32,000 nucleotides of DNA, taken from NCBI GenBank assembly GCA_019056805.1, contig DXJG01000002.1, positions 283,103 through 315,102 on the forward strand. The letters run 5' to 3'. How positions within the stretch are numbered: position 1 is the stretch's first letter; the number at the start of each line of letters is the position of its first letter. Below are positions 6,615 through 16,638 of the stretch, one piece after another. The notes under the pieces are model-generated. The model was not told where the DNA came from and searched no databases. It was given only the letters and a program-made list of their open reading frames with translations. The position numbers and the translations under genes were made by a program. The stretch comes from Candidatus Baldrarchaeota archaeon (GTDB lineage: Archaea > Asgardarchaeota > Baldrarchaeia > Baldrarchaeales > DXJG01).

Positions 6615-7919
6615 TTGCATAAAGATGCACGGAATAACGTAAATTTGACTAAACAACAAAAATCAGTTGAATTTGCAAATAGGATTCTCAAATATCTGAT
6701 CAGTCTTGGTAAAGATTTGGATTTTATTAATCACTTTTATGGATTAAATATTTCACAAAACGACATTAGAAGGTTTAAGGATTTTTTGAAAGTAATAAAA
6801 TTAAAGGCTAAAGGATATAGCCTCACCAAAACTTCCATGCTAGTTGGTGTTCCAAAAGATACGATTGCAAAATGGGTTTTTAACAAGAGTCTGCCATTCC
6901 TAGTTAGAATTTTTCAACATTATATCCAACTAGGAGATTCAAAAGATAAATTATGGTTGTCAGTTAATTCTACTAAAGGTGGATTGTTTACTGGGCCGTG
7001 GATACTGGTACCAGACAAAATTATTCACTATGACGACGTGTTATTTGTTATTAATCAACTTAAACCAATAAATGAATGTAAAATAAAACATCAATTTGAC
7101 TTAAAATCTGACAATCTGAAAAGAATGAAACCTAATTTTTTTGCATATCTACTTGGTATACTAGTTGGAGATGCCAGTAAAGTCGGTATAAAGAGGAAAC
7201 GAAGAACTACTAGAAGAATTTCACTATCTTTAACACGCACATATCCAACAAATGAACGATTGGGAGATTTTGTATCCCTATGTGCTAATTATTTAGGGTT
7301 ACGAATGACCAGAATAAAAGATGGACCAAAAGGTAGTAAAAATAAAAATAGCTTTTTTAGATGGAGTTCACAGTCTTCGCCATTAATTGAATGGATATTT
7401 AATGTCTGCTTAGGGCTTAACGATGATCAACTTACAACTTACGATGCAATTAAAGCCGATTGGATTTTAACTGCGCCTAAAACTTTTAGAATATGGTTTT
7501 TACAAGGACTAGCAGACTCTGACGGTTTCGTAGACTTACAAGCCCAGCAAATAGGAATCATAACGCAACCCAACACAGATTTGATTGAAAGAATTTTTAA
7601 GAGTTTAGGAGTTAATTCCAGAAAAAGAATTTTTAGCGGAAGACTAGAAGGTCTGATGATAAATATAAGAGATGCTTACAAACTTCCTATCTTTAACCCG
7701 TTGGTAAGAAGTTATAGATTTGAGTTACTAGAAAAACTTGTCAAAGCTAAAAGAATACGAGGACGTTGGCCAAAATGGTTAAGTGACAAAGTAGATACTT
7801 ACATAAGAAGCGGTTTGCAAGGAACTCAAATTGTAAAAAGAATCCTTAACGAGTTTAACATAGCTATCAGAACTAAACAAATTTATAAAAGACAAAAAGG
7901 GATAAGTCATGAAAAATAA
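6615..7919 (+). mobile_element. free-standing double-motif LAGLIDADG homing endonuclease gene
   Basis: Motif 1 FAYLLGILVGDAS and motif 2 FLQGLADSDGF, both retaining the acidic residue; N-terminal HTH-like segment (SLTKTSMLVGVPKDTIAKW). No intein C/S start or HN end. Overlaps the true kae1 start by 11 nt. Confidence 0.8.
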
Positions 7920-9992: not shown

Positions 9993-10724
9993 CTACAATA
10001 TTTCGTCTATAAGATTTAGCAGGTCTGTAAGTTTTGAAATTTTTCTACATCTTCTGTTTTTGTAAAGCCCTTTTCTGTCAAGAAGAACACCCATTATTCC
10101 AACTGACTCAGCTCCAAGATAATCATTTTCATAACTATCACCAATATGCATCATCCTTTCAAGAGGTGTATTCGACATTTTTGAAGCAAGTTTAAAAATT
10201 TCCGGGCTCGGCTTTTCATAGCCTACAGAACCAGAAGCCACCAATAAGTCAAAATAACTTTCTAACCCAATCCGAGAAAGATAAATTGATAAATTCCTGT
10301 GAGAAGAAACATTAGAAATTATAATAAGACGAAACCCCCGTTTTTTAAGTTCTTTGAGAGTAGGTTCCACATCTTCGTACGCCCTAAATACGACCCTATG
10401 AGGCCACAGCTCAGATACTTGCAAAGCAAGTTTACGTGGATTAGGTAGTCTTAAAGCTGATATCATGTGTTGAATAAGTTCAATAAATGCCTCTTCATTC
10501 CACAACTTACCAGTTTTAACTTTCTCCCACCTCCACCAATCACGTACACTTCTAAATACATCCTTAAGTTGTTCAACATCGACCTTATATCCTAATTCAC
10601 TTAAAATTTCATAAAAAACAATATGATCATCCTTTACTTCATAGGCAAGGGTCCCTCCAAAATCTAACGAAATAGTTTCTAACAAATTCCTCTCTCCTAC
10701 CAAATTTTTAAACGCACAGTTCAA
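9993..10724 (-). CDS. HAD-superfamily hydrolase (subfamily IA); start possibly later
   Basis: DFGGTL motif I, IISN, EKPSPEIF and HIGDSYENDYLGA. Confidence 0.88.
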   Translation of the reverse strand: MNCAFKNLVGERNLLETISLDFGGTLAYEVKDDHIVFYEILSELGYKVDVEQLKDVFRSVRDWWRWEKVKTGKLWNEEAFIELIQHMISALRLPNPRKLALQVSELWPHRVVFRAYEDVEPTLKELKKRGFRLIIISNVSSHRNLSIYLSRIGLESYFDLLVASGSVGYEKPSPEIFKLASKMSNTPLERMMHIGDSYENDYLGAESVGIMGVLLDRKGLYKNRRCRKISKLTDLLNLIDEIL

Positions 10725-10829
10725 TCAAGTCTCCATAAAGCATTTATTGATTCAAACATTATACTTTTGACAATATTAACTTACGTAATATTTTTACATA
10801 AAAATCAAGGCAATCCATAGTTTAAATTC

Positions 10830-10882
10830 AATCAGTAGAGGTGCATATCATCACTTTTCAGTTCAGGTCAGTATCATCATAC
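10830..10882 (-). ncRNA. C/D box guide sRNA (2'-O-methylation), double guide
   Basis: Minus strand: C box AUGAUGA (10880-74), 12-nt guide, D' CUGA (10861-58), C' GUGAUGA (10854-48), 12-nt guide, D CUGA (10835-32). All four boxes are perfect and the location is intergenic. Confidence 0.93.
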
Positions 10883-11151
10883 TGGATATAACTACCTACC
10901 GACAATACCATTCCACACATCCATATTTTCTTAGCAAACGAATATTAAATTATCGTTAATGCACTTACTTTTAATTTTTATGAATTTTTTCTTTCTTCCG
11001 TTAAGTCTTTCACGAGTTCACATTTTTGTTTTGCAATTAAAATGGTCTAGGTACGTATCTGGAACGTTTTTCCTCTATGTGCCAGTTAGGTCGATTTAAC
11101 CAAAATTTTTAATAAGTTTGGAGACATTAATACTAGAAGGAGAGGTGGAGT

Positions 11152-12732
11152 ATGAGAAAACTAAAGTTTTCTAAAAGAGCTCAAACAAAGCTGATTGCAA
11201 TAATCGTTGTGATCATAGTAATCGCAGCAGTTGTTGGCATTGCTTACTATTACTTGGCACCTAAACCAGCTCCCAAACCGCTTACCTTAGGTACAACAGA
11301 TAAAATAACAGTTCTCGATCCTGCAAAAGCCTATGACTTCTTCACATGGGAGATATTTAACAACATTGGTGAAGGATTATTAAAGTACAAGCCTGGAACA
11401 ACCGAATTAGAACCGGGTATCGCAGAATCGTATACCGTCAGCGCTGACGGGCTCGAATACACCTTTAAACTCAGAGAAGGCTTGAAATTTACCGATGGAA
11501 CCCCACTTAACGCTACCGCTGTTAAATGGTCTATAGACCGAGTCATGAGACTAGATCTAGATCCTTCATGGCTAGTTACAGCCTTCGTTGACAGAGTAGA
11601 AGTTGTAGACACCTACACCGTAAAGTTCGTACTGAAAAAACCAGTTTCATACTTCCCAGCACTAGTTGCCACCGTGCCCTACTTCCCAGTAAGCCCCAAC
11701 TCCTACCCCGCAAATGACACCGCTGAACCTCTAGTAGGTCACTACGGCCCCTATAAAATCAAAAGCTGGACAAGAGATGTAGAAATCGTCCTAGAAGCCA
11801 ACCCCGACTATTACGGTCCCAAACCAAAATCGGAGATCTTCGTTGTAAAATTCTTTAAAGACGCTTCTTCATTAAGATTAGCGGTGGAAACTGGTGAAAT
11901 CGACATTGCTTGGAGGACACTAAGACCAACAGACATAATTGATCTTAAAGAGGCAGGAGAACTAACCGTAATAGAAGCACCAGGACCATATATTCGATAC
12001 ATTGTCTGTCGCTGCAACCAAGCACCCTTTAACAATACGCTCTTAAGACGAGCTGTTGCCGCAGCCATAAACAGGAGTAGAATATGTGAAGAAGTCTACA
12101 AGGGTACCGTTGAGCCACTTTACAGCATGGTTCCTAAGGGAATGTGGAGCCACATTGATGCATTCAAAGAGGAATATGGTGAGCGCAATTTAACACTAGC
12201 AAGAGAACTCTTAATGGAGGCAGGGTACAGCGAGGAAAATCCATTTGAATTCGAACTATGGTATACTCCTACACATTATGGAGATTTAGAGGCAGATGTA
12301 GCGGCTGTAATAAAGGAAGACCTTGAAGAGACAGGTATCATGAAGGTTACACTGAGAAGTGCTGAATGGGCAACATATGCTGGTGAGTACATAGCCCAAG
12401 GAGTTATGCCTATCTTTCTACTCGGCTGGTATCCAGACTACATAGATCCAGATAACTACTTAACATGCTTCCTTCACTCAGAATATTCGCCAGACCTGGG
12501 CGTATTCTACAATAACAGTCAAATGGACGAGTGGCTTGAGGCAGCTCAAACCGAATTAGACATAGAAACACGAACAGAACTCTATATAAATGTACAAAGG
12601 CTAATGGCCGAAGAAGCCCCAGTTATTCCGCTTTTCCAAGGAAAACTGACTATCGTCACTTCACCAGACGTAAAGGGAGTTGTACTAGACCCTGTAATGC
12701 TGCTCAGATACTACTTGATCTACAAAGAGTAA
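11152..12732 (+). CDS. dppA: ABC transporter peptide/nickel-family substrate-binding protein
   Basis: LDPA, EGLL, PGIAESY, YTFKLREGLKFTDGTPLNATAV, GPY, and WYPDYIDPD; N-terminal membrane anchor. Confidence 0.92.
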   Translation: MRKLKFSKRAQTKLIAIIVVIIVIAAVVGIAYYYLAPKPAPKPLTLGTTDKITVLDPAKAYDFFTWEIFNNIGEGLLKYKPGTTELEPGIAESYTVSADGLEYTFKLREGLKFTDGTPLNATAVKWSIDRVMRLDLDPSWLVTAFVDRVEVVDTYTVKFVLKKPVSYFPALVATVPYFPVSPNSYPANDTAEPLVGHYGPYKIKSWTRDVEIVLEANPDYYGPKPKSEIFVVKFFKDASSLRLAVETGEIDIAWRTLRPTDIIDLKEAGELTVIEAPGPYIRYIVCRCNQAPFNNTLLRRAVAAAINRSRICEEVYKGTVEPLYSMVPKGMWSHIDAFKEEYGERNLTLARELLMEAGYSEENPFEFELWYTPTHYGDLEADVAAVIKEDLEETGIMKVTLRSAEWATYAGEYIAQGVMPIFLLGWYPDYIDPDNYLTCFLHSEYSPDLGVFYNNSQMDEWLEAAQTELDIETRTELYINVQRLMAEEAPVIPLFQGKLTIVTSPDVKGVVLDPVMLLRYYLIYKE

Positions 12733-12756
12733 AAAATAAAAACCACTCACTTAACC

Positions 12757-12764
12757 TTTTTTTT
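12757..12764 (+). terminator. possible oligo-T terminator/attenuator between dppA and dppB
   Basis: T8 run 25 nt after the dppA stop; archaeal terminators are typically oligo-T. Confidence 0.35.
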
Positions 12765-12777
12765 CGGAGGAAAATAT

Positions 12778-13788
12778 ATGACATCTCTAAGAATATACGT
12801 TGTAAGGCGAATCCTTTTGGCTATTCCCACGATTCTTATTCTCCTCACGATTGTTTTTGTTGTAATGAGAGTCGCTGGAGACCCTGTCAGTGCCATACTT
12901 GGTGGTCACGCCCCCGCAGAACAAATCGAACGTATAAAAGAGCAGCTTGGACTTAATAAACCGCTATACGTCCAGTACCTTGAATATCTTTGGCAACTTT
13001 TCCATGGAGATCTAGGACGGTCAATGATTTGGGGGCGAAGACCCGTATTAGTTGAGATTTTAGAACACTTCCCAGCTACACTAGAACTTTCCATATCAGC
13101 ATTTATTGTGAGCATATTTATTGGAATAATTACTGGTGTCCATTCAGCTCGCAATTACAATAAACCTACTGACCACATGCTTAGGCTGTACGGCATTGTT
13201 ACCTATGCCCTTTTTATTCCTTGGATTGGACTAATATTACAACTAATATTCGGAGTATACCTAGGTTGGTTGCCAACCAGTGGACGAATAGATACCCTCA
13301 TGGAGCCAAAACACATCACCGGACTCTACGTGTTAGATAGTATCCTAACACTTAACATTCCCAGTTTGATCAGTGCGATAAGGCATCTAATTCTTCCATC
13401 CATAACCTTAGGAATTTATCTTTCAGGAATTTACACACGTCTTACACGATCAAACATGTTGGAGATTCTTAGAAAAGACTTCATAACAGCCGCTAAAGCG
13501 AGAGGGTTACCAGAAGATACAATAATCTACAAACATGCTCTAAAAAACGCGTTTATACCAATACTTACGATGATGGGGTTACAGTTCGCGTTGCTACTTG
13601 CCGGAGCAGTATTAACAGAGACAACATTTTCATGGCCAGGAATGGGAACATTTCTTGCCGAAAGGATATTTTACCGAGATTACACAACAGTTCAGGGAAC
13701 CATTGTTTTCTTCGCACTTCTAGTAGTTAGTGTGAGCCTTATAATCGATATTCTCTACGCTTATATAGATCCAAGAATTCGATATTAG
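12778..13788 (+). CDS. dppB: ABC peptide transporter permease
   Basis: GLNKPLYVQY, GDLGRS, PATLEL, and EAA-type loop TAAKARGL...KHALKNA. Confidence 0.92.
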   Translation: MTSLRIYVVRRILLAIPTILILLTIVFVVMRVAGDPVSAILGGHAPAEQIERIKEQLGLNKPLYVQYLEYLWQLFHGDLGRSMIWGRRPVLVEILEHFPATLELSISAFIVSIFIGIITGVHSARNYNKPTDHMLRLYGIVTYALFIPWIGLILQLIFGVYLGWLPTSGRIDTLMEPKHITGLYVLDSILTLNIPSLISAIRHLILPSITLGIYLSGIYTRLTRSNMLEILRKDFITAAKARGLPEDTIIYKHALKNAFIPILTMMGLQFALLLAGAVLTETTFSWPGMGTFLAERIFYRDYTTVQGTIVFFALLVVSVSLIIDILYAYIDPRIRY

Positions 13789-13797
13789 GAGGTTAAA

Positions 13798-14676
13798 GTG
13801 ATGACACCAATTTTATCTTTTTCAAGATTGATTGCATCACTTAAGAGAATTTCCCCTAGAAGAGGGATTGAATATTGTTTTACCATTATAGGATTTGTGA
13901 TCACTCTTTCCATAATTTTAATGGCTATTTTTGCTCCATACATTGCTCCTTATGATCCAACAAAAAGAGTAGGCGGTCTTCTTGAGGGTCCAAATAGCCA
14001 TTTTATTATGGGTACAGATAGCCTTGGAAGAGATATTTTTAGCAGAATAATATATGGATCTAGGATCGTTCTACGTGTCACTCTTTTATCGATTGTTATT
14101 TCTTTTTTCTGCGGTGTACCACTTGGATTAATAGCGGGTTATGTTGGAGGTAAACTTGACAGCGTTTTATCCTTGGTCATGGATGCTATGTATGCTTTCC
14201 CAGGACTTATCTTGGCTATAGCCATAGCTGCCGCACTGGGTCCAAGTGAGATAACTGTATCTTTAGCAATAGCAGTGATTTACATCCCAACTTATTTCCG
14301 AATGATTAGAGGACACGTTTTATCTCTAAAAGAAAGCCTATTTATTGAAGCAGCAAGAGCGATTGGCGCTAGGGACAGAACTATAATATTCAAATACATT
14401 TTTCCAAACGTTATTCTATCTATTCCAATAATACTATCACTTAATGCAGCTGATGCCGTCCTAACAGAAGCAGCTTTAAGCTTTCTTGGACTTGGACCAG
14501 TCACTGCACCGACTCCAGATTGGGGAATGGATTTAAGGATGGGTCACGCTTATCTTGCTGCTAAAATTTGGTGGCCAAGTACATTTCCAGGGTTGATGAT
14601 AGTATTACTCACACTGGGCTTCAGCCTTCTTGGAGAAGGAATCAGCGAAATTTTGAATCCGAGATTAAGGAGATGA
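13798..14676 (+). CDS. dppC: ABC peptide transporter permease
   Basis: GTDSLGRDIFSRIIYG, EAARAIGA and EAALSFLGLG. Confidence 0.92.
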   Translation: MMTPILSFSRLIASLKRISPRRGIEYCFTIIGFVITLSIILMAIFAPYIAPYDPTKRVGGLLEGPNSHFIMGTDSLGRDIFSRIIYGSRIVLRVTLLSIVISFFCGVPLGLIAGYVGGKLDSVLSLVMDAMYAFPGLILAIAIAAALGPSEITVSLAIAVIYIPTYFRMIRGHVLSLKESLFIEAARAIGARDRTIIFKYIFPNVILSIPIILSLNAADAVLTEAALSFLGLGPVTAPTPDWGMDLRMGHAYLAAKIWWPSTFPGLMIVLLTLGFSLLGEGISEILNPRLRR

Positions 14677-15641
14677 AAGCTGTGGGGGAAAGTATCCTAG
14701 AAGTAAAGGGCCTAAAAGTTTACTATTATACAAGAGAAGGCGTCGTGAGAGCTGTGGATAACGTAGATTTTTTCATGGAAAAAGGAGAAACAGTGGGCTT
14801 AGTTGGGGAATCTGGTTCGGGAAAATCGACTTTAGGTTTTTCCATATTGAAGCTTATTCCTCCTCCAGGAAAAATAGTTGACGGAAAGATTATTTTTGAT
14901 GGAATTGATCTTACTGAGTTGGATGAAAAGGAGATGCGTGAAATAAGAGGAAAACGGATTTCAATGGTCTTTCAAGATCCAATGACTTCACTAAATCCGC
15001 TCATGAAGATAGGTGACCACTTAGTTGAGACTATAATGACGCATGAGGAAGTTACACGTGAGGAAGCCGAAGAAAGAGCACTTGCATTGTTAAGAGATGT
15101 TGGTATTATGCCGGATAGATTTCACGATTATCCTCATCAGTTTAGTGGGGGAATGCGGCAGAGAGTCATGATTGCTTTGGCATTAGCTTTAAATCCAGAT
15201 ATAGTTATAGCAGATGAACCTACCTCTGCTCTTGATGTGATTGTCCAATTTCAAATTTTGGATTTGATGGAGAGATTAAAAAAGCAATACAATGTAGGAA
15301 TGATCTTTATATCTCATGATATAAGTGTAGTCGCTGAAATTTCTGATAAAATAGCTTTGATGTATGCAGGCCAAATAGTTGAGTATGCTAATGCCATCCC
15401 CTTCTTCGAAGAGCATCTACATCCCTACGCCGAGCTACTGTTACAATCAGTGCCAAATATTGAGCTATCTGACCAAAAACTTAAATACATCCCTGGGTTG
15501 CCACCAGATTTACTTCACCCCCCTAGTGGTTGTAGGTTTCATCCACGGTGCCCATATGCTGAAAGCATATGCAAAGAGAAAGATCCCCCCTTACTTGAGA
15601 TAAATACAGGACACTTTGTAAAATGTTTTAGATATAAGTAG
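14673..15641 (+). CDS. dppD: ABC peptide transporter ATP-binding protein
   Basis: GESGSGKST, FQDPMTSLNP, FSGGMRQR, DEPT and C-terminal GCRFHPRC. Start at the ATGA overlap with the dppC stop. Confidence 0.92.
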   Translation: MKAVGESILEVKGLKVYYYTREGVVRAVDNVDFFMEKGETVGLVGESGSGKSTLGFSILKLIPPPGKIVDGKIIFDGIDLTELDEKEMREIRGKRISMVFQDPMTSLNPLMKIGDHLVETIMTHEEVTREEAEERALALLRDVGIMPDRFHDYPHQFSGGMRQRVMIALALALNPDIVIADEPTSALDVIVQFQILDLMERLKKQYNVGMIFISHDISVVAEISDKIALMYAGQIVEYANAIPFFEEHLHPYAELLLQSVPNIELSDQKLKYIPGLPPDLLHPPSGCRFHPRCPYAESICKEKDPPLLEINTGHFVKCFRYK

Positions 15642-15660
15642 CATAAGAGGATGTGTAAAT

Positions 15661-16638
15661 TTGATAATTAAGGTAGTGAATCTAAAAAAATACTTCCCAG
15701 TACAAAAGAGTTTCCTAGAAAGATTGTTTGCCAGAAAACTTGATTACGTTAAAGCAGTTGACGGAATTAGTTTTGAAATAGAAAAGGGTGAAGTTTTCAC
15801 CATAGCTGGAGAAAGCGGATGCGGAAAAACAACAACTGGAAGATTAGTTACACGACTCATTGATCCTACTGATGGAAAAATTCTCTTTAAAGAAAAAGAT
15901 ATAACATTTCTGAGGGGAGAGGAACTAAGAAGACTCAGAAAACATATACAGATAATTTTCCAAGACCCCTACGCTTCCCTTAATCCTCGCATGAAGATAG
16001 GAGAGATCGTAGGGCATCCCCTTGAGATTCATGAAATAGCAACGGGAGATGAAAAGAAGAAGTTAGTCCTTGAAATGCTGGAAAAAGTCGACTTAAAACC
16101 AGCTGAAAAGTTTTATGACATGTATCCTCACGAATTGAGCGGCGGACAGAGACAAAGAGTAGCAATAGCAAGGGCTATGATACTTAATCCGGATTTCATT
16201 GTAGCCGATGAACCAATTTCGATGATAGACGTTTCTTTAAGAGCAAAGATACTTGAATTGATGACTGAGTTAAAAGAGGAATTCGATTTAACATATCTCT
16301 TTATAACACATGACCTAGCAGTAGCTAAATACATTTCTGATAGAATAGCCATTATGTACCTAGGAAAAATTGTTGAGATGGGTCAAAAAGAATTAATATT
16401 CTCTAACCCCCTTCACCCCTACACTATTGCATTACTCTCAGCGATACCAATTCCAAATCCAAAAAGAAAACGCAAACGCATAGAACTAAAGGGAGAAGTT
16501 CCTAGCTCCATTAACATACCATCCGGCTGTAGATTCCATCCACGCTGTCCATATAAAGAGGACATATGTTCCAAGGAAGAACCACAACTAATAGAGGCAG
16601 AAAAAGACCATTACGTAGCATGCCACCGAGTCCAATAA
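15661..16638 (+). CDS. dppF: ABC peptide transporter ATP-binding protein
   Basis: GESGCGKTT, FQDPYASLNP, LSGGQRQR, DEP and GCRFHPRC. Confidence 0.92.
   Translation: MIIKVVNLKKYFPVQKSFLERLFARKLDYVKAVDGISFEIEKGEVFTIAGESGCGKTTTGRLVTRLIDPTDGKILFKEKDITFLRGEELRRLRKHIQIIFQDPYASLNPRMKIGEIVGHPLEIHEIATGDEKKKLVLEMLEKVDLKPAEKFYDMYPHELSGGQRQRVAIARAMILNPDFIVADEPISMIDVSLRAKILELMTELKEEFDLTYLFITHDLAVAKYISDRIAIMYLGKIVEMGQKELIFSNPLHPYTIALLSAIPIPNPKRKRKRIELKGEVPSSINIPSGCRFHPRCPYKEDICSKEEPQLIEAEKDHYVACHRVQ

Follow-up and report, generated by a model that had tools for sequence, protein, structure and literature searches.

The window analyzed here, a stretch of 32,000 nucleotides, contains on its minus strand a gene for a box C/D sRNA (10829..10884). 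The gene is intergenic and lies between the genes for a HAD hydrolase (9993..10724, minus strand), which is located downstream of the sRNA on the same strand, and for an ABC peptide substrate-binding protein (11152..12732, plus strand), which is divergent. Both neighbors serve as context only: the HAD hydrolase gene is missing at the equivalent site of the congeners, and the ABC gene is the first of an operon that was not found at this place in congener G001. The ends of the sRNA gene were placed from the sequence and from alignments to Rfam C/D models, which span 10829/10830 to 10883/10884; they are approximate, with a weak terminal stem of 3 bp. Read on the minus strand, the gene contains box C (AUGAUGA, the consensus; 10874..10880), the 12-nt D' guide UACUGACCUGAA (10862..10873), box D' (CUGA; 10858..10861), box C' (GUGAUGA; 10848..10854), the 12-nt D guide UAUGCACCUCUA (10836..10847), and box D (CUGA; 10832..10835). 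Box C' follows box D' after 3 nt (AAA), which is K-loop geometry. Hence, all four boxes are consensus and stand in the order C, D', C', D, with 49 nt from C to D and a 3-nt D'-C' loop, as is typical of archaeal C/D sRNAs, which measure 50-70 nt and have K-turn and K-loop geometry. The initial annotation had postulated a double-guide C/D sRNA with perfect boxes and two 12-nt guides, and this is what we found at 10832-10880, on the minus strand, which the annotation had not specified.

The strict four-box pattern has a single match in the 1.92-Mb genome, which is the sRNA, and none in eight null genomes of 1.92 Mb each that were generated with an order-4 Markov model. Furthermore, the partner proteins fibrillarin, Nop5, and L7Ae are all encoded in the genome, all over the cut-off. 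At gathering score, no family matched the sRNA in the Rfam scan of the window; below this threshold, several generic archaeal C/D models align with it end to end, the best being sR17 (E = 7.6e-05). Folding of the sRNA alone gave no stable structure beyond that of shuffled sequences (z = −0.74), as is expected for a protein-bound C/D RNA. About 60 nt upstream of the sRNA, the sequence TTTAATA was found, which is a candidate TATA box only; a sigma-70 promoter scan yielded counts at chance level, and the sigma-70 model is unsuited to an archaeon. A loose scan (0 to 2 matches per null genome) gave three more C/D sRNA candidates at G000:C6:61239-61288 (+), C9:487383-487434 (+), and C9:407539-407591 (−).

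All four genomes of the genus (4/4) encode the sRNA, each time next to GNAT, Sua5, and Kae1 genes; the guide cores are invariant, and the flanks have diverged. Near-identical copies include those of the congeners Baldrarchaeota Yap30.bin4.67 and Odinarchaeota AUK032. Baldrarchaeia are Asgard archaea and are reported to be hyperthermophiles (10.1101/2023.03.07.531504). Retention of the gene in all congeners while the flanks diverge, the intact state of every box, the fit of both guides to one rRNA helix (see below), and the empty null genomes argue against a chance arrangement of boxes or a dead, unexpressed remnant. Genes have repeatedly been gained and lost at the locus within the genus, which would suit such an origin; we nevertheless consider it highly improbable.

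The genes that flank the sRNA vary among the congeners and comprise the HAD hydrolase, the ABC operon, a dCMP deaminase, and an 885-aa ORF (window 9993-16638). Congener G002 has two copies of the sRNA (L076/L026 and L077/L027), one of which is directly followed by frameshifted ORFs that look tyrosine integrase-like by eye and gave no Pfam match. Possibly, the sRNA gene serves as a hot spot for insertions or as an attachment site. Elsewhere in the window, a 434-aa ORF (6615-7919, plus strand) lies between the gene for a CLP1-like kinase and Kae1; it has LAGLIDADG-like motifs by eye and no Pfam match, and it is missing at the equivalent site in G001 and G002.

Predicted target sites in helix 34 of 16S rRNA

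The 16S and 23S rRNA genes are not assembled in the source genome (91% complete), and the 16S gene is also absent from three congener assemblies. Pairing was read on the 16S rRNA of G004, a relative of the same order, with the numbering of E. coli rrsB. The D' guide forms 10 Watson-Crick pairs with positions 1195-1204, and the D guide forms 9 Watson-Crick pairs and two G-U pairs with the 11 contiguous positions 1047-1057. By the +5 rule, the base at window position 10866 selects G1197 and the base at 10840 selects G1050. Thus, each guide of ~12 nt makes at least 9 pairs with the G004 16S rRNA and has a Watson-Crick pair, C-G, at +5. Two bases beside box D' are unpaired with the target. Unpaired bases at this place are common in archaeal box C/D sRNAs. 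In the 3' half of the 16S gene and the 23S gene of G004, the helix-34 sites are the best for both guides, the next best having 6 (D') and 8 (D) pairs, and shuffled guides reached an equal length anywhere in 4.5 kb in only 8 of 3000 trials for D' (0.3%) and 112 of 3000 for D (3.7%). With the tRNA loci found in the source genome, the guides form at most 7 pairs. The initial annotation had assigned the guides to the regions ~1195-1205 (D') and ~1047-1056 (D) and had derived Gm at G1197 and G1050 from the +5 rule; on the G004 16S rRNA, both regions and the same two nucleotides were recovered, the modifications themselves being predictions. In the 16S rRNA of Baldrarchaeia, the target segments would be expected to be AGGUCAGUA and GAGGUGCAU, with GAGGUGCAU at 1048-1056 and CAGGUCAGUA at 1195-1204.

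Three members of the wider family described below were checked against the 16S rRNA of their own genome, and all of them fit. The 16S rRNA of several Asgard families has U1049, with which the D guide would lose one pair. In G033, the D guide matches the genome's own U1049 and C1056, and in G118, the D' guide matches the genome's own U1195; both are compensatory changes relative to the window. The guides of G304 match both sites in its own 16S rRNA.

It might be imagined that only one guide acts on helix 34 and that the D guide acts elsewhere, at a 23S site or at G673 in helix 23, or is inactive. An 8-pair alternative exists in the 23S gene of G004, the 16S rRNA of the source genome itself is missing from the assembly, and in some Thermoproteota relatives (L180, L183, L184, and L201), the core of the G1050-register D guide has drifted and pairs better with G673 than with G1050. 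However, G1050 is the best site in the panel for the D guide of the window, with pairing along 11 contiguous positions, and the guide core is fixed in the genus and matches the sRNAs sR6 and sR120, which a published 16S alignment places in the 1050 region. An action elsewhere is therefore improbable. For the four Thermoproteota loci, a target switch or a dual target is possible.

According to the Rfam structure, read by hand, helix 34 consists of 15 pairs between 1047-1064 and 1192-1210. The two targets do lie on opposite strands of the helix, 1047-1057 on the 5' strand and 1195-1204 on the 3' strand, as the initial annotation had claimed, but they are staggered, and direct facing is limited to 2-3 pairs: 1056:1204 and 1057:1203, and in addition 1053:1205 if the last A of box C pairs. 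Together, the two guide duplexes occupy at least one strand in 12 of the 15 pairs, and therefore, as judged from the structure, both reactions would need a helix 34 that is unformed or opened. Within helix 34, G1050 and G1197 are separated by 147 nt of sequence and thus exceed the distance of 100 nt that marks long-range double guides.

As far as the sequence tells, the locus very likely encodes a real, expressed sRNA that guides the formation of Gm1197 and Gm1050 on opposite strands of helix 34 and acts before the helix closes. In the C/D class, the boxes are the assembly platform for L7Ae, Nop5, and fibrillarin, and methylation occurs at the target base that pairs with guide nucleotide 5 (PMC7994747; PMC6009581). 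In our model, a stand-alone archaeal box C/D sRNA of ~55 nt would be bound by L7Ae at the C/D K-turn and the C'/D' K-loop, followed by recruitment of Nop5 and fibrillarin, as is established for the class. The D' guide would pair with pre-16S rRNA at 1195-1204 for 2'-O-methylation of G1197, and the D guide would pair with 1047-1057 for methylation of G1050, with the RNP acting before helix 34 closes or while it is open. The core job would be methylation beside the decoding-site bases C1054 and A1196; help in folding by the sRNA is possible and is not required to explain it.

Distribution of the guide pair in Asgard archaea and Thermoproteota

Outside Asgard, exact D'/D patterns were found in records of Thermoproteales, Thermofilaceae, Brockarchaeota, and Thaumarchaeota/Nitrososphaera; the exact patterns matched 27 metagenome stretches, some of which are redundant and one of which is a chance match. 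Most other Asgard families gave no match to the exact guide patterns, which does not imply absence of the guides. The G1051-register and long-spacer forms escaped the double-guide patterns and were recovered by the single-guide searches only. With a loose double-guide pattern, 8 matches were obtained in Thermoproteota versus 7 in controls, and the count as such is uninformative; 7 of the 8 were accepted because the boxes that had not been searched for are in place. Matches G109, G672, L059, and L095 are without boxes and were rejected as chance, and bacterial pattern matches were set aside. Throughout the homologues, there is free variation in the one or two bases beside the D boxes, and boxes C and C' are in place even though the search pattern did not include them.

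In a second approach, the G1197 guide was searched alone, with no condition on the partner guide. A G1197 guide at D' was accompanied by a D guide of the G1050 or G1051 register in 20/22 matches within the order to which a Thermofilaceae genome belongs, in 28/40 loci sampled from Thermoproteota (17 G1051 and 11 G1050), and in 14/24 Asgard matches, compared to a background of 1.4% of random windows. These counts have to be read with a loose classifier in mind, as ~8 of the partner guides fit G673 (helix 23) better or pair weakly, and they include many close kin, 16 of the 17 Thermoproteota G1051 loci looking like one lineage. In ten Thermoproteota loci, the G1197 guide stands at box D; all of these have other partners, and 7 of the 10 have the partner of Pyrobaculum sR32.

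In sum, the window RNA represents the G1050 register of a wider family that combines a G1197 guide (D') with a G1050 or G1051 guide (D) and occurs in several Asgard and Thermoproteota lineages. The two guides stay linked although register, spacer length, and gene context vary. Beyond boxes and guides, the homologues can hardly be aligned, and since gene contexts differ between the lineages that carry the guide pair, synteny cannot prove common descent; we infer that the family members share descent. The contribution of the window is the compact G1050 form of Baldrarchaeia and the tie to Thermoproteota.

The G1051 register was found in families f16 and f21 and in one Thermoproteota lineage. Asgard family f21 (L156-L176, e.g., L157:1488-1580:+) has an 85-nt double guide for G1197 and G1051 in 21/22 genomes and, therewith, selects both of the corresponding yeast sites (Gm1428 and Gm1271). 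Between D' and C', the f21 RNA has a covarying hairpin with the invariant loop GGACAC, which is complementary to 16S positions 1081-1087 in the rRNA of G118 itself and is reminiscent of the additional base-pairing elements in yeast snoRNAs (PMC3116282). L28e has been reported from Hodarchaeales and Njordarchaeia only (10.1101/2023.03.07.531504), and by their L28e content, f21 are probably Hodarchaeales and f16 probably Njordarchaeia.

Several related arrangements were observed alongside. In L202 and L203 (Thermoproteota), the G1197 guide stands at D', and the short D guide, which ends in GGACACU, has its best match at U1085; this D guide uses the same GGACAC segment as the f21 hairpin loop. 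L204-L219, 16 genomes of one Thermoproteota lineage, carry a G1197 and G1051 double guide with a short hairpin spacer and, ~25 nt upstream, the element TTTAAATA. In Asgard families f19 and f11 (L146-L149 and L133-L136), the guides for G1050 and G1197 are on separate RNAs, and their G1050 guides have an A-for-U core that fits U1049. The partner guide of L147 fits A1191, and the partners of L148 and L149 appear to fit ~1180-1187, which, if so, would be other long-range pairings.

A more demanding idea is that the two guides must share one RNA. The RNP would then hold both helix-34 strands, 147 nt apart, next to each other in antiparallel orientation and afterwards release them so that the helix closes, which would make it a folding chaperone in addition to a methylation guide. 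The unconditioned partner counts point in this direction, within the limits of the loose pattern and of kin that are not independent, and so does the linkage that outlasts changes of register, spacer, and context, even though most guides reportedly lack long-term conservation (PMC6009581). A similar link between the 1050 strand and the 1180-1195 region seems to occur in further Asgard sRNAs (L147-L149). Such a role has already been proposed for the class of long-range double guides (Dennis 2015, PMC4644070), on the basis of prediction and simulation in the cited papers. However, the overlap of the targets amounts to 2-3 pairs only, the G1197 guide has a different partner in the ten Thermoproteota loci where it stands at D, and purifying selection alone would keep a gene with two needed guides intact. 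Furthermore, the guides are not combined on one RNA in Sac sR6, Mka sR120, Pca sR32, and Asgard family f19, and yeast, human, Arabidopsis, and Dictyostelium use separate snoRNAs; the linkage is thus dispensable, judging from the separate RNAs of Pyrobaculum, Sulfolobus, Methanopyrus, and eukaryotes. The repeated linkage is compatible with a chaperone role, and we regard a strict need for both guides on one RNA as tentative and on balance rather unlikely.

Taken alone, the window RNA is an ordinary archaeal methylation guide, and the interest lies in its family. Guide pairs of archaea reportedly turn over fast between orders; several lineages from two phyla nevertheless have the 1050/1197 pair on one RNA and in the same order. 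The pair brackets the decoding-site bases C1054 and A1196, and its sites are at, or one base from, two methylations common to yeast, plants, amoebae, and humans. It thus offers a test case for a chaperone function of long-range double guides in rRNA folding and for the descent of individual eukaryotic snoRNAs from individual archaeal sRNAs. For comparison, nature provides register variants one base apart (1050 or 1051) as well as split versions, and the Thermofilaceae-type homologues suggest that cultured material may be obtainable.

Relation to eukaryotic snoRNAs and to described archaeal sRNAs

Yeast C1274 corresponds to E. coli C1054 and yeast A1427 to E. coli A1196 (PMC13231172), and therefore, G1197 is equivalent to yeast position 1428. 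The predicted G1197 site is thus exactly yeast Gm1428 (snR56) and human Gm1490 (U25), and the D' guide is, by prediction, a functional counterpart of snR56/U25. Yeast Gm1271 (snR40; human Gm1328) is E. coli 1051, whereas the D guide of the window selects 1050 and hence is no counterpart of snR40/U32; G1050 is yeast G1270, one base off, between yeast Um1269 and Gm1271 (methylation sites and guides in yeast and human: PMC2794176; PMC8817022). The expectation of eukaryotic snoRNA-guided Gm sites in both regions therefore holds exactly for D', with Gm1428, and misses Gm1271 by one base for D.

Accordingly, snR56, U25 (SNORD25), Arabidopsis snoR19, and Dictyostelium CD1 address the same site as the D' guide of the window, and in the Rfam DdR1 consensus, the matching guide for the G1197 site also precedes an internal CUGA box, like the D' guide of the window. 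The D guide differs from snR40, U32, and snoR21, which select the equivalent of 1051. In yeast, human, Arabidopsis, and Dictyostelium, there are two separate, longer snoRNAs, whereas the window has both guides on one RNA. The Rfam model of snR56 scored 16.5 bits with the window (gathering 54), a sub-threshold similarity that falls short of homology at family level. A far-reaching scenario would be that one ancient sRNA, combining the G1197 guide (D') and a G1050 or G1051 guide (D), already existed in the ancestor shared by Thermoproteota and Asgard archaea, that its linkage was kept as the RNP clamps both helix-34 strands in 30S assembly, and that the G1051 form (probable Hodarchaeales and Njordarchaeia) split in eukaryotes into snR56/U25 and snR40/U32. 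We consider this scenario, taken as a whole, doubtful.

Among archaea, the literature searched did not reveal the 1050/1197 combination or its spread over two phyla; the search lay largely outside subscription papers and supplements, and the combination may be catalogued there. In Asgard and Thermofilum literature, no description of the sRNA was found in titles or abstracts, and the main text of an S. solfataricus ribosome paper gave no experimental record of Gm1050 or Gm1197. Long-range double guides have been described in Nanoarchaeum equitans, namely, sR17 (16S helix 28) and sR15 (helix 30), and in Pyrobaculum, namely, sR2, sR53, and sR56 (PMC4644070 Table 3; PMC6009581). Like the window RNA, these are compact four-box RNAs with two guides whose targets are >100 nt apart and lie on opposite strands of, or near, one helix, and a chaperone role has been proposed for them. 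Unlike the window RNA, none of the long-range double guides in PMC4644070 Table 3 targets the 1050/1197 pair of helix 34, and most of the published ones are limited to a species or genus, whereas the guide pair of the window occurs in two phyla.

Each of the two guides has its own described relatives, detected by RNA-seq, in Sac sR6, Mka sR120, and Pca sR32 (PMC4644070 supplements). Sulfolobus acidocaldarius sR6 (RF01829) and Methanopyrus kandleri sR120 have the core AUGCACCUC and address the same 5' strand of helix 34 as the D guide of the window. In sR6, the AUGCACCUC guide stands at box D with the spacing seen in the window, whereas in sR120 it stands at D'; the second guides of both are unrelated to G1197, unlike that of the window. 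RF01829 scored 26.4 bits with the window (gathering 60), with only the D guide in common, and thus the window RNA does not belong to the sR6 family. Pyrobaculum calidifontis sR32 has the guide core UACUGACCUG for the G1197 site, as has the D' guide of the window, but carries it at box D, and its partner targets nearby 16S rRNA and not the 1050 strand. Hence, each single guide is already catalogued, and what is unusual is that the two guides recur together on one RNA across lineages.
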